NCBI GenBank assembly: GCA_037388825.1
Contig: JARRJV010000025.1
Location: 21,031-85,030 of the forward strand
Length of the DNA: 64,000 nucleotides
From: Acidiferrobacteraceae bacterium
GTDB lineage: Bacteria; Pseudomonadota; Gammaproteobacteria; Acidiferrobacterales; JAJDNE01
Direction of reading: 5' to 3'
Of this stretch, positions 2,198 to 49,733 are shown piece after piece. The position numbers and the translations under genes are program-made. The notes beneath the pieces were generated by a model that was given only the letters and a program-made list of their open reading frames with translations, had not been told where the DNA came from and did no database searches. Positions within the stretch are counted from its first letter, which is position 1, and each line of letters opens with the position of its first letter.

Positions 2198-4066
2198 ATG
2201 AAACGGTCTTTCCTCATTTCCCTCCTGGTTGCGCTCCTGATACCCGCAGCGGTCGCAAGCCCAAAGCCGGCAGCCAAGCTCGAAAACCGGCTTGCGCACA
2301 ATCCTTCTCCCTATCTGGCTATGCATGCCGGGGATCCTGTGGCATGGCAAATCTGGGACCGCAAGGCTGTCGCCGCGGCGCGGGCACAAAACAAGCTCCT
2401 GTATGTCTCCATTGGCTACTTTTCCTGTCACTGGTGTCATGTCATGCAACGGGAGAGCTACCGCAATCCGGAGATCGCCCGTTTCCTGAACACCCATTTC
2501 ATCCCGGTGAAGGTCGATCGCGAGCTGGAACCGGCCCTGGACGCCCGTATGGTAGCCTTTGCCGAGCGGACCCAGGGTTCCAGCGGCTGGCCGCTGAACG
2601 TATTTCTGACTCCCGATGGCTACCCCTTGTATGCCGTTCTTTACCTGCCACCGAAGAATTTCCTTGCCGTACTGCAGCGTCTTCAGGGACTTTGGGGCCA
2701 GGACCCGAAGGCCATGGCCAAGCTGGCGCGCCAGGCCCAGCCGGGTGGCACGGGTCCGGGCAAGCCGGAACTGGACGCGGGCCAGGTTCGCCATTGGGTA
2801 GCCGCGGTAGTCGGACAGGCACGGGAGATCGAGGATCCGCTGAGCGGCGGTTTCGGCAAGCAATCCAAGTTTCCTTCGGTACCGCAACTGGATTTCCTGA
2901 TGGCCTTCCTGGCCAGCCATCCGGATCCAAAGTTGGAGGAATTCCTCAAGCTCACCCTGGACCAGATGGGACAACAGGGCCTGTACGACCATATCGGCGG
3001 CGGCTTCTTTCGCTACACCATCGATCCGACCTGGCAACGGCCGCACTTTGAGAAGATGTTGTACGATAACGCCCTGTTGGCGCGACTGTACTCACGTGCA
3101 GCACGACAGTTTCACAGTCCCCGATATTCCCGGCTCGCGCGATCCACCTTCGCATTTATGGAGAACGCCCTGGAGCGACAGAGCGGAGGCATGATTGCGG
3201 CGCTTTCGGCCCTGGACGACCACAATGTCGAAGGCGGGTATTACCTTTGGTCCCTGGGGGACCTGAGGAAGATCCTGTCGCCGGAGGAACTACACGTGTA
3301 TCGGAGTGCGCGGGGCATGACGGACGCACCGCCCTTCGACGAGGGTTATCTTCCCTTGGGCATCGTTCCGTCCGTTGGCGCCAAGGCCAGGGAACTCGGG
3401 CTGAAAACGGGCCAACTCAGGCGACTGGTCGACGAGGCTGACGCAAAGCTCCTGGCGGCCCGCCAGCGTCGCAACGTTCCCCCGGATCCGAAGCAACTTG
3501 CCGGTTGGAACGGGCTGGCACTATCTGCCTTTGCGGATTCGGCGCGCCATGACGGTGACCCTCACTATCGAGTGGTCGCCGGCCGATTACGCAATTTCCT
3601 TGTTACCCGGCTGTGGAACGGCCAGAAGCTGTATCGGGCCGTGTCCCGTGGGCACGGGATCGGTCAAGCCAGCCTGGAAGACTATGCCTATGTGGTCCGC
3701 GGTCTTGCCGATTGGGCACTGCTTACCGGAAAGCAGGAGGATGCCCGGTTCGCGATACGGATCGCCAATCGGGCATGGACGGATTTCTACGGCCCCCATG
3801 GTTGGCGCCTCGGGGAAAGCAGTCTGATCGCACCGGAAACCGGTCGGGATGCAATCGAAGATGGACCCATGCCGTCGCCTTCGGCGACCCTGATGGCCGC
3901 CTGTCTGGATCTTGCGCGCATACGCGGGGATGCGGCCCTTCGTCGGCGGGTACTGGCAGCGCTGAACAGTGGCACTGATCTCGTGCAGCAGAATCCGTTC
4001 TGGTATGCGACCCGTGTGCGCGTGATGCAGGAGGCCTTGCGGTCGGGTGATCGTGCCGGATCCTAG
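2198..4066 (+). CDS. secreted thioredoxin-domain protein (DUF255 / YyaL-like, N-terminal Trx fold plus alpha/alpha-toroid)
   Basis: 622 aa. Signal peptide MKRSFLISLLVALLIPAAVA. The DUF255 signature ...YVSIGYFSCHWCHVMQRESY... is present. Confidence 0.8.
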   Translation: MKRSFLISLLVALLIPAAVASPKPAAKLENRLAHNPSPYLAMHAGDPVAWQIWDRKAVAAARAQNKLLYVSIGYFSCHWCHVMQRESYRNPEIARFLNTHFIPVKVDRELEPALDARMVAFAERTQGSSGWPLNVFLTPDGYPLYAVLYLPPKNFLAVLQRLQGLWGQDPKAMAKLARQAQPGGTGPGKPELDAGQVRHWVAAVVGQAREIEDPLSGGFGKQSKFPSVPQLDFLMAFLASHPDPKLEEFLKLTLDQMGQQGLYDHIGGGFFRYTIDPTWQRPHFEKMLYDNALLARLYSRAARQFHSPRYSRLARSTFAFMENALERQSGGMIAALSALDDHNVEGGYYLWSLGDLRKILSPEELHVYRSARGMTDAPPFDEGYLPLGIVPSVGAKARELGLKTGQLRRLVDEADAKLLAARQRRNVPPDPKQLAGWNGLALSAFADSARHDGDPHYRVVAGRLRNFLVTRLWNGQKLYRAVSRGHGIGQASLEDYAYVVRGLADWALLTGKQEDARFAIRIANRAWTDFYGPHGWRLGESSLIAPETGRDAIEDGPMPSPSATLMAACLDLARIRGDAALRRRVLAALNSGTDLVQQNPFWYATRVRVMQEALRSGDRAGS

Positions 4067-17970: not shown

Positions 17971-18318
17971 GGAGTCGGCCAGACAGTCGCTGCGCGCTTG
18001 GCGCGTGGAGGAAAGTCCGGGCTCCACAGGGCAAGGTGCCAGGTAACGCCTGGGGGGCGAGAGCCCACGGAAAGTGCCACAGAAAATACACCGCCTAAGC
18101 GGCCCTCGGGCCGCCGGTAAGGGTGAAATGGTGCGGTAAGAGCGCACCGCGCCGCTGGCAACAGCGGTGGCAGGGAAAACCCCACCTGGAGCAAGGCCAA
18201 ATAGGGGAACCATGGCGTGGCCCGCGCCGTTCCCGGGTAGGCTGCATGAGGCGTACGGCGACGTGCGTCCCAGATGAATGACTGTCCACGACAGAACCCG
18301 GCTTATCGGCTGACTCAT
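17971..18318 (+). ncRNA. rnpB: RNase P RNA, bacterial type A
   Basis: Universal blocks GGAGGAAAGTCCGGGCTCCACAGGGCAAGGTGCCAGGTAACGCCTGG and ACAGAACCCGGCTTATCGGCTGACTC are present. P1 pairs ggagtcggcc with ggctgactc. The ends are approximate (+/- 5 nt). Confidence 0.9.
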
Positions 18319-18329
18319 CCTCTTCCAAT

Positions 18330-18365
18330 CCTCCAATATTTCAGTATATTGGAGGGTTCTTCTCT
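18330..18365 (+). terminator. hairpin terminator after rnpB
   Basis: cctccaatat / atattggagg form a 10-bp stem with a 6-nt loop, followed by a T-rich tract (gttcttctct). Confidence 0.5.
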
Positions 18366-18474
18366 ATCAGTTTCTTAGAAATTCTCCCGGCGGTTCTGCC
18401 GATGACGCTTCATCGAACCTCGCTAAACGCTTGTCGAAAAAAGGAAACTTGCCCCCCTGCGGTGGGAAATTCGC

Positions 18475-18504
18475 TTGACAGTGCTCTGAGATGGTACATA
18501 TAGT
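18475..18504 (+). promoter_or_regulatory. Pmra-like sigma70 promoter of the dcw cluster
   Basis: TTGACA (18475-18480), an 18-nt spacer, then TATAGT (18499-18504). Confidence 0.65.
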
Positions 18505-18537
18505 GTGGATTAGTGGGAAAATGTGGGTAAATGTGGG
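18503..18537 (+). promoter_or_regulatory. putative MraZ operator: four GTG(T/G)GG repeats phased at 10 bp
   Basis: tagtgtggat / tagtgggaaa / atgtgggtaa / atgtgggtag are consecutive 10-mers just downstream of the -10. An extra GTGGG lies at 18462-18466. Confidence 0.6.
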
Positions 18538-18560
18538 TAGGAGCACTTCCGGGAGGAGGT

Positions 18561-29450: not shown

Positions 29451-30840
29451 TCGGGTAAAACACATTCACTTCGTTGGCATCGGGGGCGTGGGGATGTGCG
29501 GCATCGCCGAAGTCCTGCACAACCTGGATTACACGGTGACCGGGTCCGATGCCGCCGAGAGCGCCAACACGCGACACCTGCGGGAACTGGGCGTGCACCT
29601 ATCCATCGGCCACGATGCGAGCCATGTTGGCGATTCCGACGTGGTCGTCATTTCCTCTGCGGTTGCGGGGGGCAATCCCGAAGTGCAGGAGGCCCGTGCG
29701 CGCAAGATCCCGGTGATCCCGCGTGCCGAGATGCTGGCCGAGTTGATGCAGTTGCAGCGGGGTATCGCGGTGGCCGGTACCCACGGCAAGACCACCACCA
29801 CCAGTCTCATCGCCAGCCTGCTCGCAGAAGGGAATCTCGATCCGACCTTTGTTATCGGGGGGCGCCTGCTCAGCGCAGGTTCCCACGCGCGCCTTGGCCA
29901 TGGCGAATATCTGGTGGCCGAGGCGGACGAGAGCGATGCTTCCTTCCTGCATCTGCACCCGTTCATCAGTGTGGTGACCAACATCGATGCCGATCATCTT
30001 GGCGCCTACGGTGGCGATTTTGCGCAACTGAAAAAGGCCTTCGTCGATTTCTTGCACAACCTGCCGTTTTACGGATTGGCCGTGCTGTGCGTGGATGACC
30101 CGGTGGTTCGGGAAATCCTCCCGCAGGTTCACAAACCCGTGTTGACCTACGGAACGCGACCCAAGGCGGATATTCGCGCCAGCGAGATCACGCAGGAAGG
30201 CGGCCGCACGCGGTTTCGCGTTTCCCACGGAGAGCGCGAGGACTGGCTGGATATCACGCTCAATCAGCCGGGCAAGCACAATGTCCTGAATTCACTGGCG
30301 GCCATCGCCGTGGCCAATGCCATCGGCGTAAGCGACGAGGCGATCACAAACGGATTGCACAACTTCGCCGGCATCGGCCGCCGGTTTCAGATCTACGGCG
30401 AAATTCCGTGGAACGACGGAAACGTACTTCTGGTGGACGACTACGGTCACCATCCGCGCGAGGTGGCCATGACCATTGATGCCGCACGCCGCGGCTGGCC
30501 GGAGCGCAGGCTGGTGGTGGTGTTCCAGCCTCATCGCTACACCAGAACCCACGACCTGCTCGACGACTTCGCGGCCGTGTTCAGCGACCTCGAACCCCTT
30601 TTGATCACGGAGGTCTATGCCGCGGGCGAACAGCCCATCAGCGGAGCGGACGGTCGCACGCTATGCCGTACGATTCGCGCGCGCGGTCTGACCAATCCGA
30701 TCTTCGTGGAGAATCTTGAGACTCTACCGCAGGTATTGCGCGGCGTGCTGCAGCCAAATGACATCCTGCTTACCATGGGCGCCGGCAACATCGGCCAGCT
30801 CGCCGCGAGTCTGCCCGAGCAGCTGAAGGAGGTCGTGTGA
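29443..30840 (+). CDS. murC: UDP-MurNAc:L-Ala ligase
   Basis: 465 aa. [10 protein letters not shown] and [12 protein letters not shown] are present. Confidence 0.93.
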
Positions 30841-31730
30841 ACGTAGCGGCCAATGTAATGCACGGACAGCTGAAGCGGAACGAACCGATGTCGCGCCATA
30901 CCAGTTGGCGTGTCGGCGGCCCGGCGGATTGTTACTACCATCCCGCGGATCTTCAGGATCTGTCCCGGTTTCTGGGCACGCTGCCCGAGGGCGAGCCCGT
31001 GTACTTCGTCGGCCTGGGCAGCAACCTGCTGGTGCGTGATGGCGGCGTGCGCGGGACGGTAGTCGCGACCTCCGGAGCGCTGGGGGATCTGGAATTGATG
31101 GAGGCCGGTTTGGTGCGCGCCGAGGCGGGTGTCGCCAGCGCCAAGGCCGCCCGATTCTGTGCCCGGCACGATCTGGTTGGTGGGGAATTTCTTGCCGGAA
31201 TTCCCGGGACCATTGGCGGCGCCCTGGCGATGAACGCCGGCGCCTTTGGCGGCGAGACCTGGAACATTGTGGCCGCGGTGGAAACCATCGATGTCCATGG
31301 CCAGATTCGCACGCGTACACCGGACGACTTCACCATTGCCTATCGCTCGGTCCACGGACCGGAAGGTGAGTGGTTTGTCGCCGCCCATTTCCGCTTGCGG
31401 CCGGGCGATGGAAGCCATGCAAAGGCTGAGATCAAGCGCCTGCTTGCGCAGCGGGGCAGCAGTCAGCCGACCCAGACAGCCAACGCCGGTTCCGTTTTCA
31501 AGAATCCTCCGGGCGACCATGCCGCGCGCCTGATCGAGGCCACTGGGCTCAAGGGTATCTGCGAAGGCGAGGCCTGCGTTTCGGACATGCATGCCAACTT
31601 CATCGTCAATACCGGCGGTGCCCGTGCCGCCGATATTGAACGTCTCATCGAACGCGTCCGGCAGGCCGTGCACGAAGCCCACGGCGTCCTGCTGGAACCG
31701 GAGGTACGTATCGTGGGGGAGGCCGAATGA
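30837..31730 (+). CDS. murB: UDP-N-acetylenolpyruvoylglucosamine reductase
   Basis: 297 aa. FAD-binding MurB pattern ([19 protein letters not shown]). Confidence 0.92.
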
Positions 31731-32679
31731 GCGCGCGTGGTCTCGGCAAGGTGGCGGTCCTGATGGGCGGACCCTCGGCGGAACGGGAGGTTTCCCTGCG
31801 CAGCGGCGCCGCCGTACTCGCCGCCCTGCAACGCCGCGGTGTGGATGCCCATGGGATCGACGCCGGTCGCGATGTGCTCAAACAACTTGAGCAGTAAGCA
31901 AAGGTATTCTAACATCAAGGTCTCTTGAATCTGTTGTAGCAAAATACCTGATAAACGATAAACAAGCAGAAAATTGGTGATGTATTACGTGAAAATTATT
32001 AATCCAGTGACTTCACAAAATATCTTACTGAAAAAGTGCATCAGACTAACGGTCAAGATGAAACATTCGAACAGAAACTGTCAGGTGCCTTAATCACGCT
32101 GGGGCCTCTACAGATGACTTTTAATTTTACCGGCAATTTCTTCAAACTCCTCTTTTACTGGGCCTGCCGATGGCGGTAAAACCCAATGCGCAGGGATCCA
32201 GTGTCGGCGTAAGCAGGGTAGACCGGCGCGAAGAACTTGCCACCGCCTGGGAGATGGCGCGCGCCCTGGACCCGGTTGTGCTGGCGGAGAGCTGGATTAC
32301 CGGGAAGGAGCTCCACGCCGCCATTCTTGACAACGAGCCGCTGCCCCTGGTGTGGGTGGAGGCGCCTGGCGGTTTCTATACCTACGACGCGAAGTACAAC
32401 TCCGACGCCACACGCTACCACTGCCCGAGCGGCCTTGACCCGGAGGTCGAGGAGAGGGTTCGCATGCTGGCCCTGCAGAGCTTTCACCTGCTCGGTTGTC
32501 GCGGCTGGGGGCGGGTCGATGTGCTGCTGGACGAGTCATCACACCCGTATGTGCTGGAGGTAAACACCCTGCCGGGTATGACGGACCACAGCCTGGTACC
32601 CATGGCGGCACGGGAAGCGGGCATGGATTTCGATGAACTGGTGATGCGAATTCTGGAGGGCAGCCATGGCGAGCGTTAA
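31727..32679 (+). pseudogene. ddl: D-alanine--D-alanine ligase, disrupted (N-terminal 56 codons and C-terminal ~172 codons, out of frame; central part replaced)
   Basis: The ATG at 31727 (ATGA overlap with murB) gives [56 protein letters not shown], then TAA at 31895. Ddl sequence resumes at about 32161 (GLPMAVKPNAQGSSVGVSRV...LEVNTLPGMTDHSLVPMAAREAGMDF...) in another frame. The ALHGRGGEDG block and the first half of the ATP-grasp central domain are absent. Confidence 0.85.
31895..32160. other. AT-rich (~36% GC) foreign-composition segment replacing the middle of ddl
   Basis: Composition breaks abruptly at both edges. Stops occur in all six frames. The 6-bp inverted termini are CAGTAA (31892-97) and TTACTG (32155-60). 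The content was not recognised. Confidence 0.8.
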
Positions 32680-33436
32680 TCCGGTCCCGCAGCTCAATCT
32701 GACCCGGTCCCTGTTTAATACTGGCCTGGTGCTGTTCTGGTCCCTGGTGGCGCTCGCGGTTGTGCTCGTGGGCCTGGACTGGGCATTAAAACCCGATACC
32801 TGGCCGGTGCGCAGCGTGAGTTTCCAGGGCCCGTTTCACCACGTGAGCCGGGGTCAGCTGGAAAACAGCGTGGTGGGCCAGTTGGCGGGCAATTTCCTGA
32901 GCGCGGACCTGCCCCGCGTGCAACAGACCGTCGAAGCCCTCCCCTGGGTGGATCAGGCCTGGGTCAGTCGTCGCTGGCCCAATGGCGTTCAGGTGCGCTT
33001 TACGGAGCAGCACTTCGTGGCGCGCTGGGGCGATTCGGCATGGGTCAATGGCAAGGGCAAGGTGGTCCGGCTTCCGCAAGACGACGGACCGGAGGATGTG
33101 GTGGGCCTGGCCGGACCGGAAGGCAGCGCCCCCCGGGTGTTGAAGCAGTACCAGGACCTCGAATCCATGTTCGCCGCGGCGGGCCTGCACGTCGACAAGC
33201 TTACGCTCAGCGACCGGCGTACCTGGAGCCTGGAACTGCACAACGGAATCTCCCTGGAATTCGGGCGCGAATCCCTGCAGCGATCCGCACAACGCTTTCT
33301 GCTGGCCTATCCCTATCTGGCCGCGTACATGGGGCGCATACGTCGAATCGACCTGCGCTACGCCAACGGTTTTGCCGTGGGGTGGAAGAGGGGGCAAGCG
33401 GTCCCCATCCGTCTCGCATCCAGCAACGAGAGGTGA
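32666..33436 (+). CDS. ftsQ: cell division protein FtsQ
   Basis: 256 aa. Bitopic, with a POTRA-type domain. The gene lies between ddl and ftsA. Confidence 0.9.
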   Translation: MASVNPVPQLNLTRSLFNTGLVLFWSLVALAVVLVGLDWALKPDTWPVRSVSFQGPFHHVSRGQLENSVVGQLAGNFLSADLPRVQQTVEALPWVDQAWVSRRWPNGVQVRFTEQHFVARWGDSAWVNGKGKVVRLPQDDGPEDVVGLAGPEGSAPRVLKQYQDLESMFAAAGLHVDKLTLSDRRTWSLELHNGISLEFGRESLQRSAQRFLLAYPYLAAYMGRIRRIDLRYANGFAVGWKRGQAVPIRLASSNER

Positions 33437-33439
33437 ACG

Positions 33440-34684
33440 ATGTCGAAAAAGGATAACGAACGTCTGGTGGTCGGACTGGATATTGGCACGTCCAAGGTCC
33501 TGGCCATCGTCGGCGAGGTCACCGCGGACGGAGAGGTGGAGATCATCGGCGTTGGCCACCACCCCTCACGAGGCCTGAAAAAGGGAGTGGTGGTGAACAT
33601 CGAATCCACCGTCCAGTCGATCCAGCGTGCGGTCGAGGAAGCGGAGTTGATGGCGGGATGCGAGATCCATTCCGTCTTTGCCGGGATCGCCGGAAGCCAT
33701 ATCAGCAGTTTCAATTCCCACGGAATTGTCGCGATCAAGGACAAGGAAGTGGGTGCAAGCGACGTCGAGCGTGTCATCGAGGCTGCGCGGGCGCTCGCTA
33801 TCCCGGCGGACCAGAAGGTACTGCACATCATTCCGCAGGAATACATCATCGACAAGCAGGAAGGGATCCGCGAGCCGGTCGGTATGAGTGGCGTGCGCCT
33901 GGAAGCCAAGGTGCACATCGTCACTGGCGCGGTCAGCGCGGCACAGAACATCATCAAGTGCGTTCGCCGCTGCGGGCTGGAAGTGGACGACATCATTCTC
34001 GAGCAACTCGCCTCCAGCATCGCCGTCATCACCGACGACGAGAAGGAGCTGGGCGTGTGCCTGGTGGATATCGGTGGCGGTACCACGGACATCGCCGTGT
34101 TCACGGACGGGGCTATCCGTCACACAGCAGTCATTCCCATCGCCGGCGACCAGGTGACGAATGACATTGCCGTGGCTATGCGCACGCCCATGCAGCATGC
34201 CGAGGAAATAAAGAAACAGTATGGCTGCGCGCTGACGCAACTGGCGCGTACCGACGAGACCATCGAGGTTCCCAGCGTCGGAGACCGTGCTCCGCGCAAG
34301 CTCGCACGCCAGACCCTTGCCGAGGTGATCGAACCACGCATCGAGGAGCTGTTCACCCTGGTTGCGGCGGAGCTGCGTCGCAGCGGATTCGAGGATCTTG
34401 TGGGGTCGGGTGTGGTGCTTACCGGTGGTAGTTCCAAGCTGCAGGGAATGGTGGAACTGGCCGAAGAGGTGTTTCACATGCCGGTACGGCTGGGCCTGCC
34501 CCACAACGTAAGCGGCCTGAGCGGCGTCGTTGAGAACCCGATGTATGCCACCGGTGTCGGCCTGGTCCAGTTTGGCGCCAGACATCGTGGCGGGTCCGAG
34601 TTCGTGCAACAACCCGGCCGGTCTTCGCCGGGAATGAAGGGTGTACTGAGTCGAATGAAGAGCTGGTTTCAGGGAAATTTCTGA
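33440..34684 (+). CDS. ftsA: cell division protein FtsA
   Basis: 414 aa. Actin-like ATPase (VGLDIGTSKV, DIGGGTTDIAVF). Confidence 0.94.
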   Translation: MSKKDNERLVVGLDIGTSKVLAIVGEVTADGEVEIIGVGHHPSRGLKKGVVVNIESTVQSIQRAVEEAELMAGCEIHSVFAGIAGSHISSFNSHGIVAIKDKEVGASDVERVIEAARALAIPADQKVLHIIPQEYIIDKQEGIREPVGMSGVRLEAKVHIVTGAVSAAQNIIKCVRRCGLEVDDIILEQLASSIAVITDDEKELGVCLVDIGGGTTDIAVFTDGAIRHTAVIPIAGDQVTNDIAVAMRTPMQHAEEIKKQYGCALTQLARTDETIEVPSVGDRAPRKLARQTLAEVIEPRIEELFTLVAAELRRSGFEDLVGSGVVLTGGSSKLQGMVELAEEVFHMPVRLGLPHNVSGLSGVVENPMYATGVGLVQFGARHRGGSEFVQQPGRSSPGMKGVLSRMKSWFQGNF

Positions 34685-34736
34685 TCGTGAGCGGAAGATT
34701 TTCTTTTAACGGGTGCAACAATCGGAGGAGCGACAC

Positions 34737-35867
34737 ATGTTTGAACTGATGGATACATACGGCCCGCAGGCCGTGATCAAGGTGATAGGCGTGGGAGGCG
34801 GAGGTGGCAATGCCGTCGACCACATGGTCCACGCGAGTATCGAAGGTGTGGAGTTCATCAATGCCAACACGGATTCCCAGGCGCTGGGCAAGACCCGGGC
34901 AGGGACCATCCTGCAACTGGGCGCAAGCCTGACCAAGGGGCTCGGGTGCGGTGCCGATCCCGATGTCGGTCGCCAGGCTGCGGTGGAAGACCGTGAGCGC
35001 ATCGCCGAGGTATTGAACGGCGCCGACATGGTGTTCATCACAGCCGGCATGGGCGGCGGAACCGGAACGGGGGCGGCGCCCATTGTTGCGCAGGTTGCAC
35101 GGGATCTCGACATCCTGACGGTGGCGGTCGTGACCAAGCCATTCCCCTTCGAGGGACGCAAGCGCATGGCAGTGGCGGATCAGGGCGCGAAGGATCTGGC
35201 GCAGTTCGTCGATTCCATTATCACGATTCCGAACGAGAAGCTGCTGACTGTGCTTGGCAAGGAGGCCACCTTGCTGGATGCCTTTGGCAAGGCCAACGAG
35301 GTTCTGCAGGGCGCGGTTCAGGGGATTGCCGAACTGATCACCCGCTCGGGCCTGATCAACGTCGACTTTGCCGATGTCCGCACGGTGATGTCGGAGATGG
35401 GCATGGCCATGATGGGATCGGCCTCTGCAGGTGGTGACAACCGGGCGAGTGAAGCGGCTATGGCTGCGGTGGCGAGTCCGCTGCTGGAAGACATCAACAT
35501 CTCCGGCGCCCGCGGCATCCTGGTGAATGTGACTGCCGGCCCCGACATGTCCATCGGCGAGTTCGAGGAGGTGGGCAATACCGTCAAGGAGTTCGCCTCG
35601 GAAGACGCAACCGTGGTTATGGGTACGGTCATCGATCCGGAAATGAGTGGAGAATTGAGGGTTACCCTGGTGGCGACCGGCCTGGGCCGTGAGGCCAAGC
35701 CGAAGCAGCCCTACCGGGTGATCAAGACCGGAACCGGGACCACGGATTTCGAGGATCTCGATACCCCGACCGTGATCCGCAAGCGGCGCGACCATGAGGA
35801 TGCCGCCGCCGCGGATTCGGTGGAGTACCTGGATATACCGGCCTTTCTGAGAAAGCAGGCCGACTAG
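34737..35867 (+). CDS. ftsZ: cell division protein FtsZ
   Basis: The ATG at 34737 follows GGAGGAG. The tubulin signature GGGTGTGAAP is present. The track start at 34713 is an extension. Confidence 0.95.
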   Translation: MFELMDTYGPQAVIKVIGVGGGGGNAVDHMVHASIEGVEFINANTDSQALGKTRAGTILQLGASLTKGLGCGADPDVGRQAAVEDRERIAEVLNGADMVFITAGMGGGTGTGAAPIVAQVARDLDILTVAVVTKPFPFEGRKRMAVADQGAKDLAQFVDSIITIPNEKLLTVLGKEATLLDAFGKANEVLQGAVQGIAELITRSGLINVDFADVRTVMSEMGMAMMGSASAGGDNRASEAAMAAVASPLLEDINISGARGILVNVTAGPDMSIGEFEEVGNTVKEFASEDATVVMGTVIDPEMSGELRVTLVATGLGREAKPKQPYRVIKTGTGTTDFEDLDTPTVIRKRRDHEDAAAADSVEYLDIPAFLRKQAD

Positions 35868-35910
35868 CCCGGTCTCCTGTGTCGCAAAGGACAGGGACGT
35901 CCACTTTTTT

Positions 35911-35955
35911 CGGTACCCCGGGGTTCACCCGGCCCCGGGTTACCGGCTTTCCTTC
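35911..35955 (+). terminator. hairpin terminator after ftsZ
   Basis: cggtaccccgggg / ccccgggttaccg form a 13-bp stem with one mismatch and a 9-nt loop. The hairpin is flanked by tttttt upstream and gctttcc downstream. Confidence 0.5.
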
Positions 35956-36302
35956 CCATTCCCGTAATGTCGCCTTCAAGTCACTGATCGGTGGTGTTTT
36001 TTCTCCTGCGATTGGAGATCGTCCGTGTTTGCGGGCAGTCGCTGGACCATGCCGGTTTTCGTCGATCCGTGCGTTTATCGGGGCACATCGACCGGACGTA
36101 GGGTCGCTTGCGGGCGCAAGCTGGACAGGTTCTAGAAATTGCCTTTAAATACATGGAATACCTAGGGAGTTTCCTATAAAGTTCCACGTTCCCGCGGGAC
36201 TCATGCCTGTGGGGCAGGGTGATTGATCTCTGGGGACGGTCTGGTTTGCGCAAGAATCCCGGCTATAGTGGGATGGCGAAAGCGCGGTGTACGAACAATA
36301 AA

Positions 36303-37217
36303 ATGATTCGACAAAGAACGCTGAAAAACACAATTCGAGCTACCGGTGTCGGCCTGCACACCGGTGACAAGATCTATCTGACCTTGCATCCGGCGCCTGT
36401 AGATACCGGCATTGTGTTTCGCCGAACCGATCTTAAAGAACCCGTCGATGTAAAAGCCTGTCCCCAGAACGTAAGTGATACCCGCCTTTCCACCACCATT
36501 GAAAAAGATGGTGTCCGAATCTCCACCATTGAACACCTGATGTCCGCCTTTGCCGGTCTGGGCATCGACAATGCATTGATCGAGTTAACGGCGGCCGAAG
36601 TCCCGATCATGGATGGTAGTGCAGGCCCGTTCGTTTTTCTCCTGCAGTCCGCCGGGATCGAGGAGCAGTCGGCACCAAAACGTTTTCTTCGTATCAAGCG
36701 CAGGATCGAGGTAAAGGAAGACAACAAGTGGGCGGTATTCGAGCCGTTCGACGGTTTCAAGGTATCCTTCACCATCGATTTTGATCATCCCATGTTCCAG
36801 AGCGCCCAGCAGACCGCGACCCTGGATCTGTCGACCACCTCATTCGTGAAAGAGATCAGTCGGGCGCGCACTTTCGGTTTCATCGCGGAGGTGGAAGCGT
36901 TGCAGAAAGCGGGATTTGCCCGTGGTGGCGGGTTCGACAATGCGGTTGTTCTCGACGATTTTCGGGTGCTGAACGAAGACGGTCTGCGCTATGACGATGA
37001 ATTCGTGAAGCACAAGATTCTGGACGCGATCGGGGATTTGTATCTGCTTGGTTATCCCCTCATTGGCGCGTTCAGCGCGTATCGTTCGGGACACTATATG
37101 AACAATCGCCTGCTGCGCGCCCTGATGGCACAGACCGATGCGTGGGAACTCGAATCCTTTGAAGAGAATGAGGAAGCGCCGATCGCCTTCGCGGCCGGTG
37201 CAATTCCCGCAGGCTAA
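36303..37217 (+). CDS. lpxC: UDP-3-O-acyl-GlcNAc deacetylase
   Basis: The ATG at 36303 gives [32 protein letters not shown]..., the canonical LpxC N-terminus. The product is 304 aa. Confidence 0.94.
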
Positions 37218-46517: not shown

Positions 46518-47681
46518 TCAGATGACGGATGCGAGTTTGAAGATGGGCAGGTACATCGCGACCACCATGCCGCCCACAATGATACCGAGAAAGGCCATGA
46601 TGATCGGTTCGAGCAGACTGCTTAGGCCGGCTACGGCGTCGTCGACCTCGGTTTCGTAGATATCGGCTACCTTGCCGAGCATGGCATCCAGTTCACCCGA
46701 TTCCTCGCCAATGGCTACCATTTGCACGACCATATTCGGGAACAGGTTTACCTGGCCCATGGCCGCCTGCAGCTGGGTGCCGGTACTGACCTCGTCCTTG
46801 ATCTGCAGCGTTCCATCATAGTAGACCCGGTTGCCCGCGGCGCCAGCGACGGAATCCAGGGCTTCCACGAGCGGTACACCGGCGGCGAACATCGTTGCAA
46901 GGGTGCGACAGAAGCGCGCGATCGTGGCCTTCTTGATGATCGGTCCAATAATCGGAGCGCGCAGCAACAGGCGATCCATCATATGCTGCATCTTCGTGGA
47001 TCGCCTGTAGGCATAGAAGAATCCGCCAATGGTGCCGAAGATGCTGCCGAAGATCAGGATCGCGTGGTTCGTAAAGGCCTTGGACAGATTGATGACGAAT
47101 ACCGTCAGTGCTGGCAGGTCGGCGCCAAAGTCGGCGAACAGACTTTCAAACTGGGGAATCACGAAGATCAGCAAGATCGCGGAAATAATGAATGCGACCA
47201 CAATGACCGCCGTTGGATAGAACAGCGCGGACTTGATCTTGCTCTTCAGGTTCTCGATCTTTTCCTTGTAGGTCGCGATCTTGTCCAGCAGGGTCTCGAG
47301 AATACCGGCCTGTTCACCGGCTCCCACCAGGCTGCAGTAGAGGGAGTCGAAATAGAGCGGATGCTTGGACAAGGCCTCGGTCAGATTGGTGCCGGATTCG
47401 ATATCCTGCTTGACGCGGATCACAAGATCCGCGAGACCCGAATTTTCCGTTCCCTTGGCTACGATATCGAATGCCTGAACGACCGGTAGACCCGCCTGCA
47501 ACATCGTGGCAAGTTGGCGCGTGAAGACCGCAATGTCCTTTGGTTTGATCTTCTTCTTGGTGTTGAACAGGGACTTCTGGGCAACGCCAGTTCCTTCCAT
47601 CTCTCCCTTGATGGTCTTGCCCTGACGGTCGGTACCTTCAAAGATGAAGATATTTGCTTTCTTGACGGCAGCTTGCGCCAT
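46518..47681 (-). CDS. pilC: type IV pilus inner-membrane platform protein (GspF family)
   Basis: 387 aa with the two GspF repeats. The N-terminal region is about 19 aa shorter than my recollection of P. aeruginosa PilC. Confidence 0.9.
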   Translation of the reverse strand: MAQAAVKKANIFIFEGTDRQGKTIKGEMEGTGVAQKSLFNTKKKIKPKDIAVFTRQLATMLQAGLPVVQAFDIVAKGTENSGLADLVIRVKQDIESGTNLTEALSKHPLYFDSLYCSLVGAGEQAGILETLLDKIATYKEKIENLKSKIKSALFYPTAVIVVAFIISAILLIFVIPQFESLFADFGADLPALTVFVINLSKAFTNHAILIFGSIFGTIGGFFYAYRRSTKMQHMMDRLLLRAPIIGPIIKKATIARFCRTLATMFAAGVPLVEALDSVAGAAGNRVYYDGTLQIKDEVSTGTQLQAAMGQVNLFPNMVVQMVAIGEESGELDAMLGKVADIYETEVDDAVAGLSSLLEPIIMAFLGIIVGGMVVAMYLPIFKLASVI

Positions 47682-47707
47682 GACGGATATTCAGTTTCCC
47701 TTGATCG

Positions 47708-49435
47708 TTACTGGTTGGTGACGCGCTCGATTTCCTCGAGGCTGGTGACGCCTGCGGCAACCTTGCGCAGGCCGGAGCGGCGCAGGGGGGTTACGCCTTC
47801 CTTCAGCATCTGCTGTTCGATGTCCAGTTCCGTCCCTTCGCGCATGATGATTTCGCCAATCGCCTCGCTCACGGGCATCACTTCATAGATGCCTACACGT
47901 CCTTTATAGCCGCCGTTGCACGAATCGCAACCCACGGGGCCGTAGACGGTGAGTCCGGCGCCGATTTCCTTGTCCGTGAATCCGGCCTTTTGCAGGGCCT
48001 CATTGGGTAAATCCAGCTTGGTCTTGCATTTCTCGCACAGCCGGCGCCCGAGCCGTTGGGCAATGATCAGGTTCACGGCGGAAGCAATATTGAACGGGGG
48101 TACACCCATGTTTACCAGACGCGTCAGGGTGGCCGGGGCGCTGTTGGTATGCAGGGTGGAAAGCACCATGTGACCCGTCTGGGCCGCCTTGATGGCGATG
48201 CTGGCGGTTTCCAGGTCTCGAATCTCACCTACGAGAATGATGTCCGGATCCTGGCGCAGAAAGGCGCGCAGTACGGAGGAAAAATCCAGTCCGGCCTTTT
48301 CATTGATGTTGACCTGGTTGATGCCGCCCAGATTGATTTCCACCGGGTCTTCGGCCGTGGAAATGTTGCGATCCGGCGTGTTCAGGATATTCACCGCCGT
48401 ATATAAGGTAACGGTCTTACCAGACCCCGTCGGGCCGGTGACAAGCACCATTCCGTAAGGCCTGTGGATCGCCTCCATGAACAATTCTTTTTGATCAGAT
48501 TCAAAACCGAGTTTGTCCACACCGATTGTCGCCGAGGTCGGATCGAGGATACGCAGCACGATCTTTTCACCCCAGAGTGTGGGCAGGGTGCTGACACGAA
48601 AATCGATGGCGCGATTCTTGGAGATGCGCATCTTGATGCGTCCGTCCTGCGGCAGACGCCGTTCGGCGATGTCCAGCCGGGACAGGATCTTGACGCGTGC
48701 TGCGATTCGTCCGGACAGTGCCAGGGGAGGGGCGGCCACCTCGTTCAATACGCCATCTACGCGATAGCGTACCCGGTAGGTCTTTTCATAAGGCTCGATG
48801 TGAATATCCGATGCACCGCGGTTGATCGCATCGAGCAGAACCTTGTTGACGAATTTTACGATCGGGGTGTCATTGACTCCGGTCTCATCGCCTCCCGCTC
48901 GATCCTCGGCGTCTTCGGAAACAACGTCGAGGTCATCGAGACCATCCAGGGACTCATCATCCGAAAACTGCGTGAAAGTCGTGTCGTTGGCCTCGAGGAA
49001 CTTGTCAATGGCCTCGCTGAGCTTGTTGTCCTCGACCAGAACCGGTTCGGTAACGCAGCCGGTATGGAACTTGATTTCGTCGAGGGCGGTGACGCTGGTG
49101 GGATCGGAGGTAGCGATATAGAGTCGATTTCCGCGCTTGTACAGGGGCAGTACCCGGTGTCGGCGAATGATCTTTTCGTCAACCAGCTTGACCGGCGCCG
49201 CCTCCACATCGATGGAATTGATATCCACCAGGGGAACGCCGAATTCCTCGGAGGCGATGCGCGCAAGGGTCGCGCTGTCGACCTTCTTGCTTTCAACGGC
49301 GTAGGAAACGAAAGAGGTCTTTTTCTGCAGCGCCCCTTCCTGAAGGCGCTCGGCGTCTTCCGTGGTCAGGAGCTTGTCGCGTACCAGCCGCAGGGCGAGG
49401 CCGCTGAGTCGGGTTGCGGTCGTCGGTGTCGCCAT
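47708..49435 (-). CDS. pilB: type IV pilus assembly ATPase
   Basis: Taken from the ATG at 49435. Walker A GPTGSGKT, the Asp/His boxes, and the tetracysteine CEKC...CDSC are present. Confidence 0.93.
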   Translation of the reverse strand: MATPTTATRLSGLALRLVRDKLLTTEDAERLQEGALQKKTSFVSYAVESKKVDSATLARIASEEFGVPLVDINSIDVEAAPVKLVDEKIIRRHRVLPLYKRGNRLYIATSDPTSVTALDEIKFHTGCVTEPVLVEDNKLSEAIDKFLEANDTTFTQFSDDESLDGLDDLDVVSEDAEDRAGGDETGVNDTPIVKFVNKVLLDAINRGASDIHIEPYEKTYRVRYRVDGVLNEVAAPPLALSGRIAARVKILSRLDIAERRLPQDGRIKMRISKNRAIDFRVSTLPTLWGEKIVLRILDPTSATIGVDKLGFESDQKELFMEAIHRPYGMVLVTGPTGSGKTVTLYTAVNILNTPDRNISTAEDPVEINLGGINQVNINEKAGLDFSSVLRAFLRQDPDIILVGEIRDLETASIAIKAAQTGHMVLSTLHTNSAPATLTRLVNMGVPPFNIASAVNLIIAQRLGRRLCEKCKTKLDLPNEALQKAGFTDKEIGAGLTVYGPVGCDSCNGGYKGRVGIYEVMPVSEAIGEIIMREGTELDIEQQMLKEGVTPLRRSGLRKVAAGVTSLEEIERVTNQ

Positions 49436-49555
49436 GGTTGTGGATGAAACTCCCGGTGATCTTTCAGTCGGTGGCATACAACACGACCCGGATACAATTA
49501 TCGTGCCCGAGCCGATTCACTGCTACTCGTATGATAGTAGATGAGATGTTGCGCG

Positions 49556-49581
49556 CAGCCAAACATTTTTGGCTGTTTTTT
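49556..49581 (+). terminator. orphan terminator-like hairpin in the pilB-rubrerythrin intergenic region
   Basis: cagccaaa-catt-tttggctg followed by tttttt on the + strand. No + strand gene lies upstream. Confidence 0.45.
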
Positions 49582-49677
49582 CATGTACCACAACAAGGGG
49601 ACAAAACAGGCTTTCCCGGGGAGATTGTGGGGCTTGATGGATATCAATGCGCCTGTGTGCCCGCTCTCCGAGAATGA

Positions 49678-49706
49678 TTGACACCGGAAAGGCAAAAAAT
49701 TAGAAT
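49678..49706 (+). promoter_or_regulatory. sigma70 promoter of the rubrerythrin operon
   Basis: TTGACA (49678-83), a 17-nt spacer, then TAGAAT (49701-06). The AGGAG RBS precedes the ATG at 49734. Confidence 0.65.
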
Positions 49707-49733
49707 GGTTCTAAATCGGTTAGGAGCACCCTC

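Follow-up and report, generated by a model that had tools for sequence, protein, structure and literature searches.

A foreign block in place of the core of ddl in an Acidiferrobacteraceae MAG is probably a chimeric patch

Ddl is normally essential, and a ddl gene that is broken inside an otherwise intact dcw cluster raises the question of whether the break happened in a living bacterium or while its sequence was being produced. We addressed this question for a window of 64 kb (the whole stretch of DNA that was analysed) from the MAG of an Acidiferrobacteraceae bacterium, in which a short AT-rich block stands where the core of ddl should be. An earlier note, made from the letters of the window, had proposed either the capture of foreign DNA, with a second ddl elsewhere, or a chimeric assembly. 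Here we have compared the locus with other assemblies of the same bacterium, traced the block to its likely donor, and weighed the explanations for its presence within ddl.

The ddl locus and its intact counterparts

The gene opens at 31727 and gives 56 residues before a TAA at 31895, and the ORF listing agrees with the earlier description in all of this. The TAA that closes the 5' fragment (31895-31897) is supplied by the foreign block, as its first three bases, and up to that point (31727-31894) the sequence was 100% identical to the native contigs by BLAST. Recognisable ddl had been thought to resume at about 32161 in another frame; the frame is indeed another one, but native sequence already starts at 32158, and it is offset by +32 nt after the block, which explains the change of frame. 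Instead of one uninterrupted Ddl ORF of ~306 aa, the locus thus contains two shorter ones, 56 aa and 169 aa long, in separate frames. The exact 56-aa protein is present in NCBI, and the first-ATG ORF of the 3' fragment (32170-32679) is NCBI MEJ2106989.1, annotated as "ATP-grasp domain-containing protein" and the same protein as our entry P0018. Both fragments are proteins on a 90,891-nt contig of the MAG, and the break is thus in the public record. A planted or edited window, to which the lack of these two ORFs and of the window's FtsZ from the gene-position index might have pointed, was accordingly rejected. The Pfam family Dala_Dala_lig_N was matched in the 5' fragment at positions 1-38 of 121 alone, and Dala_Dala_lig_C in the 3' fragment at positions 40-204 of 204, whereas the native protein covers both families in full (PF01820 and PF07478). 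With the lost codons go positions 39-121 of Dala_Dala_lig_N as well as positions 1-39 of Dala_Dala_lig_C, and the block simply destroys ddl.

In contrast, 11 near-identical public contigs from 11 samples all carry the native 231-nt core, which lies at 2262-2492 of contig L001, and an intact Ddl of 306 aa, including one strain that is 96-98% identical (2-4% diverged) and has four synonymous changes in the core. The earlier note had suggested an alignment with the closest relatives for defining the replaced interval, and the alignment to these 11 contigs fixed it at exactly codons 57-133, that is, 77 codons (231 nt) rather than the ~85-90 codons first estimated. That the segment replaces native sequence, and was not simply inserted, was correctly recognised, since the locus spans 953 nt in the MAG compared to 921 nt in its native form. 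Similarly, the segment of ~266 nt said to extend to 32160 proved to be AT-rich as described, but its size is 263 nt and it ends at 32157 (Table 1). None of the 11 contigs contains the block, and its junctions did not recur in independent assemblies. Full-length Ddl of the same cluster was found on 14 contigs when the protein collection was searched, while truncated forms were confined to one NCBI MAG. The two ddl remnants, 690 nt in total, carry zero private substitutions; they are without decay and show no sign of age. A tblastn search for a second ddl within the 64-kb window gave chance-level matches alone.

The remainder of the dcw cluster is intact, as had been claimed. Full Pfam matches were obtained for mraZ, rsmH, ftsL, ftsI, murE, murF, mraY, murD, ftsW, murG, murC, murB, ftsQ, and lpxC, and both ftsA (414 aa, matching FtsA entries of NCBI and JGI exactly) and ftsZ (376 aa, identical to NCBI MEJ2106992.1) are intact ORFs, for which the Pfam families were taken from the gene tables of near-identical contigs. 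With the block left out, positions 23408-47577 of the window aligned gap-free to JGI contigs at 99.9% identity. The MAG contig contains no N, and its indels compared to the JGI contigs over ~24 kb are limited to natural-looking strain variation near pilus genes. Private SNPs and indels together with a diverged pilB tract make the MAG strain slightly distinct from the JGI/Logan population.

Table 1. Features of the interrupted ddl locus (positions in the window)
Feature	Position	Strand	Basis and remarks
ddl 5' fragment, codons 1-56 native	31727..31897	+	ORF listing; NCBI MEJ2106988.1, hypothetical protein P8X48_06610
Foreign block, 263 nt, 35.7% G+C	31895..32157		Takes the place of codons 57-133 of native ddl (231 nt); breakpoints by BLAST against 11 native contigs
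3' end of donor ndk-like gene, ...SKGILTSRSLESVVAKYLINDKQAENW*	31895..31980	+	Peptide matches P0002 and P0003 (PF00334 NDK, 247 aa)
Decayed remains of the gene downstream of ndk in the donor; resembles P0001, function unknown	31980..32104	+	Match to P0001
End of the donor's convergent gene of the HIT family (last 15 codons and stop), ...KEEFEEIAGKIKSHL*	32108..32157	-	L032 gene 3872-4264, minus strand, PF01230 HIT
ddl 3' fragment, native codons 134-306 and stop	32158..32679	+	Reading frame differs from that of the 5' fragment

Source and content of the block

The composition of the block stands out as the earlier note had estimated by hand (~36% G+C in a GC-rich setting): its G+C content compares to 60.7% for the window, it is the sole AT-rich block in the 64 kb as well as the strongest tetranucleotide outlier (z = -6.5), and all six frames contain stops, also as previously described. 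A search for its source gave a gapless match, identical at 262 of 263 positions, to nucleotides 3659-3921 of a Bacteroidales-like contig from the Logan assembly SRR21285603 (L032, SRR21285603_320200), where the 263 nt lie between ndk and a HIT gene in an ordinary chromosomal context and with unmarked ends. Relatives of the block at 92-94% identity were found in other Bacteroidales-type contigs, and the closest named genomes were uncultured Bacteroidales MAGs; the block is a contiguous piece of the chromosome of an uncultured Bacteroidales bacterium. Strains of the host population were located in sequencing runs other than the donor run.

The block begins with the last 28 codons of the ndk-like gene. 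Here lies its single difference from the donor, a T for C at 31910 that gives Leu instead of Pro, a residue that is Pro at the equivalent position in 13 of 13 retrieved NDK sequences (P0002-P0014). The ATG of the P0001-like remnant overlaps the ndk stop, and its reading frame is disturbed by a 1-nt deletion after "MYYVKIIN" and ends after ~40 codons. The 1-nt gap was seen in DNA alignments to three contigs (L012, L013, and L014), and as the same sequence is present in L032, the remnant belongs to the donor's own sequence. Together with the end of the HIT-family gene on the opposite strand, these pieces leave the block without a complete gene, and it is functionless. We also considered whether some frame of the block could be read as Ddl, for instance as an AT-rich homologue of the gene, and rejected this on the grounds that the peptides match NDK-like proteins and proteins of unknown function.

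A mobile or functional element residing in ddl (an IS, a MITE, a group I/II intron, a small RNA gene, or an acquired cassette) would agree with the foreign composition and the sharp boundaries of the block. However, neither terminal repeats, inverted or direct, nor a target-site duplication were present at the block ends, and 231 nt of the target are missing instead of being duplicated, the block being a replacement and not an insertion. No Rfam family matched inside the block even at E<=1, and it folds no better than its shuffles on either strand (MFE z +0.55 on the plus strand and +1.76 on the minus strand). It consists of gene ends and a dead remnant and includes no transposase, no further copy was present in the window, exact block-internal patterns had 0 matches in the viral, metagenome, and genome collections, and in the donor the same 263 nt are unremarkable chromosome. 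This reading is thus refuted for practical purposes. A vector or adaptor contaminant, which the earlier note had named as a possible refutation, found no support: BLASTN of 31880-32180 matched nothing in collections of plasmids, phages, and E. coli, and the block has a natural chromosomal source.

Junctions and the origin of the patch

Host and donor share 0 nt at the left junction and 1 nt at the right junction, so that both joints are blunt. The flanks of the junctions match between host and donor at 7-8 of 20 positions, which is the chance level, and no local similarity beyond chance 7-12-mers was detected between L001 and L032 near the junctions. These findings bear directly on the suggestion that the assembly is chimeric. 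Given that the sequence is metagenomic and that the donor is a member of environmental communities, one might think of an ordinary assembler chimera, joined at a repeat or k-mer common to both genomes, or of a binning error. However, the usual de Bruijn or overlap chimera needs a shared k-mer, and as only 0-1 nt are shared, with no overlap of k-mer size, it cannot explain the junctions. Moreover, the host is collinear on both sides of the block, unlike what a simple two-genome join would produce, and binning handles whole contigs and cannot make an internal patch. We therefore consider an ordinary chimera or binning error very improbable, and what is retained of the earlier suggestion is an artefact of another kind; the blunt junctions then demand that an extra processing step or physically chimeric molecules be assumed.

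Such an artefact is the reading that we prefer, with a probability of roughly 60%: the block is probably a chimeric patch that arose in vitro or in silico during sequence production and not an allele of living cells, and its joint would have been made outside the cell. We lean to this reading because ddl is intact on all 11 other contigs, because the window holds no second ddl, and because the remnants are without decay. Since ddl is normal in every other assembly of the same bacterium, an artefact is most likely, and the broken gene is at best a private dead allele. In addition, the 263-nt insert is similar in size to the 231-nt deletion and corresponds to about one read or merged read pair, and thus fits a size-constrained patch rather than a random capture. 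The destruction of an essential gene between intact neighbours, the single-base difference from the donor, and the missing functional content count in the same direction, while the blunt junctions, the otherwise high quality of the contig, and the distinctness of the MAG strain count against it. Two routes may be envisaged. The patch could have formed in vitro, if the template was switched twice while a low-input library underwent whole-genome or PCR amplification, or in silico in a post-assembly step of gap-closing, patching, or polishing, in which a hole of ~230 nt would have been filled with a sequence the size of a read that was unrelated but came from the same community.

The other explanation in need of weighing is a real event, which the earlier note had phrased as a foreign-DNA capture or a gene-conversion scar. 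The foreign origin is confirmed; since block and ddl are not homologous, gene conversion is excluded. What would be left is a very recent, strain-specific allele in which Bacteroidales DNA was captured illegitimately inside ddl in vivo, either as a taken-up or extracellular fragment end-joined into a double-strand break or as a copy made by transient template switching, with the deletion of 231 nt, and the strain would survive on a second ligase encoded elsewhere or on environmental D-Ala-D-Ala. The blunt junctions are those of an end-joining product, which k-mer-based assemblers cannot give, and the block is an uninterrupted stretch of natural chromosomal DNA, as long as fragments of environmental DNA typically are, with a 94%-identity relative of the donor lineage occurring in a JGI environmental metagenome. 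Both ddl fragments are annotated in a public record, and as the MAG represents a slightly different strain with SNPs and indels of its own, intact ddl elsewhere is strictly compatible with a strain-specific allele. On the other hand, Ddl is normally essential and no paralogue is found in the 64 kb, the allele would have to be the majority in its own sample yet is absent from 11 others, the remnants do not show the decay of relaxed selection, and why insert and deletion should be of similar length is left unexplained. Segment replacement that was attributed to illegitimate recombination is a documented form of within-species diversity (PMC2884548), but strict illegitimate recombination is extremely rare, at ~1e-8 per cell, with double illegitimate patches at 1e-12 to 1e-13 (PMC2884548; bioRxiv 10.1101/2023.11.22.568220). 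Hence, we regard capture in vivo as possible but doubtful.

Comparison with known systems and meaning of the broken gene

The closest likeness is to sub-contig chimerism or mis-patching in MAGs, where a short stretch from another community member lies inside an otherwise correct contig, is read-sized and near the size of the missing piece, and is found in one assembly only, contradicted by the other assemblies of the population. Typical assembler chimeras differ in that they occur at shared k-mers or contig ends, whereas the joints in ddl are blunt and internal.

Among cellular processes, filler-DNA capture at double-strand breaks by NHEJ is well described in yeast and plants and has its bacterial setting in Ku/LigD systems. 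It resembles the ddl locus in that the joints are blunt, sequence is lost at the break, and an unrelated fragment is put in; however, the ddl event is known solely from assembled sequence, as a candidate cellular event, and NHEJ is reported to be rare among bacteria (PMC2884548). A further likeness is to the dimorphic "small variable segments", in which unrelated sequences of similarly small size occupy one locus within a conserved backbone without any known mobile element, and for which illegitimate recombination, homology-facilitated or not, was held responsible (Touzain et al., 2010, PMC2884548), with de Vries and Wackernagel (2002) cited there for such recombination. Those segments are tolerated variants enriched in membrane-protein genes (PMC2884548), whereas the block in ddl originates in a different phylum, destroys a single-copy gene that is essential, and occurs in a single assembly. 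Homology-facilitated recombination is also a misfit because it needs one homologous anchor and the block is a pure Bacteroidales fragment without one. SPDIR shares with the ddl locus the exchange of resident DNA for a short heterologous, possibly foreign, patch with both crossovers illegitimate. According to the account of the 2016 work in a later preprint (bioRxiv 10.1101/2023.11.22.568220), SPDIR patches measure 3 to ~100 bp and form at (extended) microhomologies, whereas the block has 263 nt and no microhomology at either junction, thereby departing from SPDIR on both points.

The main value of the finding is as a data-quality flag, as a broken essential gene has been annotated as two unrelated proteins (MEJ2106988.1 and MEJ2106989.1) in a MAG that appears to serve as species representative. 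An indirect sign of this status is that the sequence of the window was missing from the collection of GTDB-representative genomes, in which, according to its description, some few stretches are masked. Surveys of pathway completeness or of essential genes would wrongly score the lineage as being without Ddl. The probable chimeric patch is visible by its composition, and standard contig-level chimerism checks would miss a patch of this kind. Most likely, the locus does not represent a new biological system. If the event did nevertheless take place in vivo, it would rank among the few cases from nature in which an uncultured bacterium has captured a short piece of foreign DNA without the help of homology, in the form of a sequence-resolved, inter-phylum "filler DNA" knockout of a core cell-wall gene in a strain persisting at high frequency, and it would imply an alternative supply of D-Ala-D-Ala in Acidiferrobacteraceae.

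A split ddl and its native counterpart in relatives

The ORF listing showed that ddl is divided into a fragment of 56 residues and a Ddl-like ORF of 169 aa in a different frame, and Pfam assigned positions 1-38 of 121 of Dala_Dala_lig_N to the former and positions 40-204 of 204 of Dala_Dala_lig_C to the latter. The dcw cluster around ddl is intact, with full Pfam matches for mraZ, rsmH, ftsL, ftsI, murE, murF, mraY, murD, ftsW, murG, murC, murB, ftsQ and lpxC, and with ftsA and ftsZ as unbroken ORFs whose products match annotated NCBI proteins exactly. No second ddl was found within the 64 kb window. G+C content per 100-nt window drops from about 0.67-0.75 to 0.30-0.39 past 31895 and recovers by about 32150; the stretch 31895-32160 has 36.1% G+C compared to 60.7% for the whole window and carries stops in all six frames. 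It is the sole AT-rich block across the 64 kb as well as the top tetranucleotide outlier (z = -6.5). These data bear out the earlier note, which had described a ddl broken at 31895 amid intact dcw genes, with an intervening segment of ~36% G+C and six-frame stops. Second in order of low G+C comes 18250-18550, just upstream of mraZ (47.5% over 200 nt; tetranucleotide z about -4.4), presumably the dcw promoter/intergenic region.

An exact look-up of the FtsQ sequence retrieved 14 public contigs, which were compared to the window by BLAST together with contigs fetched later. Both flanks of the block are 99.9% identical to the contigs of relatives without gaps, and between them the native contigs hold 231 nt where the window holds 263 nt. 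The native segment is exactly ddl codons 57-133 (GGFDRAFNILHGPWGEDG...DFDEACAT) and is identical in the first nine contigs (9/9). The proposal of a replacement and not an insertion was thus right, while its extent is corrected to a 263-nt block at 31895-32157, which takes the place of 77 codons and lengthens the locus by 32 nt. An intact 306-aa Ddl is encoded by 11 contigs from 11 samples, L034 and L036 included (JGI 3300056879, 3300056896, 3300057003, 3300057004, 3300057016, 3300057040 and 3300057052; Logan SRR35817564, SRR35817722, SRR35817807 and SRR24270836); Ddl proteins of full length from the 90% cluster of the window's fragments lie on 14 contigs. The strain of L036 is only 96-98% identical and its ddl core differs by just four synonymous changes, indicating purifying selection on the replaced segment.

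Features of the ddl region and recorded proteins
Feature	Window position	Strand	Counterpart or record
Left flank	29634-31894		L001 (public contig) 1-2261, BLAST
ddl fragment, 56 aa	start 31727, TAA 31895-31897		MEJ2106988.1, 'hypothetical protein P8X48_06610'
ndk end, last 28 codons (first one partial)	31895-31980		seen in L032 (donor contig)
P0001-like gene, decayed remnant	31980 to about 32104		frameshift native to donor L032
Convergent HIT-family gene, last 15 codons	32108-32157	minus	seen in L032
Right flank	32158-36436		L001 2493-6771, BLAST
ddl fragment, 169 aa	32170-32679		MEJ2106989.1, 'ATP-grasp domain-containing protein'
MurB			MEJ2106987.1
FtsQ			MEJ2106990.1
FtsA			MEJ2106991.1
FtsZ			MEJ2106992.1

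The deposited MAG as a distinct strain

Cluster look-ups placed the window on a 90,891-nt contig of one NCBI MAG labelled Acidiferrobacteraceae bacterium, and the truncated Ddl proteins were found in this MAG only. The 56-aa product terminates at a TAA supplied by the block's first bases, and the first ATG past the block opens the 169-aa product, so the deposit itself contains both junctions. The 690 nt of ddl remnants contain zero private substitutions and one polymorphic site (32472), which is common to four other contigs.

The FtsZ and MurB protein variants were likewise seen in the NCBI MAG only, and C at 34765 (ftsZ), which differs from 7/7 other covering contigs, and G at 31184 (murB), which differs from 8/9, are strain markers of the MAG. 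Another FtsA variant (P0034), closely related to that of the window, is encoded on a 92,400-nt contig of a second NCBI assembly. Compared to the JGI contigs L037 and L038, the window departs at two breakpoints, about 47577 and about 49720, which enclose 2,145 nt (the PilB/T2SSE-MshEN ATPase gene) of 98.97% identity versus about 99.95% elsewhere. The window is also shorter by 57 in-frame nt within the 5' part of a T2SSF/PilC-like gene on the minus strand (387 vs 406 aa), and by 38 intergenic nt upstream of a ferritin/rubrerythrin-like gene. The region 47576-49720 has the look of a tract of strain-level recombination at the type IV pilus genes, and this divergence identifies the MAG as a distinct strain.

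Bacteroidales origin of the block

Protein searches using six-frame peptides of the block as queries gave real matches. Frame +3 (SKGILTSRSLESVVAKYLINDKQAENW, ending at a stop) corresponds to the C-terminal end of 247-aa NDK-family proteins (PF00334), and the stretch after it matches, with a 1-nt frameshift, the N-terminus of P0001, a 232-aa protein of unknown function. At the DNA level, contigs L013 and L014 are 92-94% identical to block positions 3-210 and 3-181, and L011 matches positions 1-90 and 183-262. The donor contig L032 (Logan SRR21285603 contig 320200; 7,176 nt; 38.7% G+C) was reached through P0014, a cluster member sharing the 'INDKQAENW' ending, and its positions 3659-3921 match the whole block without gaps (262/263). 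The matching part of L032 is ordinary chromosome. The block is proven to be of foreign origin, and its donor has been identified. The nearest named genomes carrying the donor-type NDK are uncultured Bacteroidales MAGs (82% aa identity). Only one base sets the block apart from the donor contig, a T instead of C at window position 31910, which puts Leu in place of a Pro that is invariant in 13/13 retrieved NDK sequences; this could reflect polymorphism in the donor, an error of the damage or amplification type, or mutation after transfer.

The block itself is functionless. A structured RNA was rejected (no Rfam match at E<=1; folding z-scores of +0.55 and +1.76), as was a mobile element, given the lack of terminal repeats and target duplication. 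No match appeared in plasmid, phage and E. coli collections, leaving the suggested vector or adaptor contaminant without support.

Relatives within the donor lineage show a decay series in the gene that follows ndk (L013 1023-1781, L032 3744-3872, L011 2667-2710): L013 (253+ aa) and L012 (232 aa) have it at full length, L032 and the block retain a frameshifted remnant, about 40 codons long and joined to the end of the HIT gene, and L011 has lost another 85 nt. The donor NDK is a 247-aa form that extends at its C-terminus roughly 80 aa past the Pfam NDK domain (residues 7-168), and homologues of 53-82% identity occur in MAGs labelled Bacteroidales, Rikenellaceae, Chloroflexia/Anaerolineae, Fibrobacter, Chitinispirillaceae, Deltaproteobacteria and Planctomycetaceae.

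Junctions and the making of the joint

The left junction reads ...CTTGAGCAG | TAAGCAAAGG, and the preceding base differs in the donor; at the right junction, ...CTCTTTTA | CTGGGCC, donor and host have just the next C in common. No extended microhomology was detected at either flank, and host and donor loci share nothing beyond chance 7-12-mers, which excludes both homologous recombination or gene conversion and a common k-mer-overlap assembly chimera. The two explanations offered in the earlier note are borne out in part: the replacement by foreign DNA holds, gene conversion is excluded, and the data do not match a simple assembly chimera.

Most likely (at about 60%), the block is a patch that was joined outside the cell and is an artefact of one deposited MAG. 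This is favoured by the destruction of a normally essential gene with no second ddl in 64 kb, the lack of private substitutions in the ddl remnants, the 99.6% identity of the block to a present-day donor population, the similar lengths of insert and deletion (263 vs 231) and the absence of the broken allele from eleven other samples. Double template switching while a low-input library was being amplified could have made such a patch, or a step after assembly, be it patching, gap-closing or polishing, could have filled a ~230-nt hole with unrelated read-sized sequence. On the other hand, the joint may have been made within the cell, where a short Bacteroidales fragment was captured in ddl through end joining that needs no homology, or through transient template switching onto foreign DNA. 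We regard this as less likely, although end joining yields blunt joints, the rest of the contig is clean (zero N and zero indels over about 24 kb save pilus-region variation), and private SNPs (e.g., 34765 in ftsZ) together with a diverged pilB tract flanked by deletions mark the MAG as a distinct strain; the gene loss, the unbroken allele in the other samples and the unchanged remnants all speak against it.

If the joint is real, filler-DNA capture by NHEJ, a described phenomenon, would be among the nearest known processes. The same applies to segment replacement at 'dimorphic' micro-diversity loci, ascribed to illegitimate recombination (PMC2884548). SPDIR would also be near, but its patches of 3 to about 100 bp arise at microhomologies (bioRxiv 10.1101/2023.11.22.568220), and it is excluded by the absent junction microhomology, the 263-nt block also exceeding its size range. 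Homology-facilitated illegitimate recombination requires a homologous anchor, which the ddl block lacks. If the patch is instead an artefact, as we favour, it would belong to sub-contig chimerism in MAGs, and would be unusual in that class for being blunt and internal.
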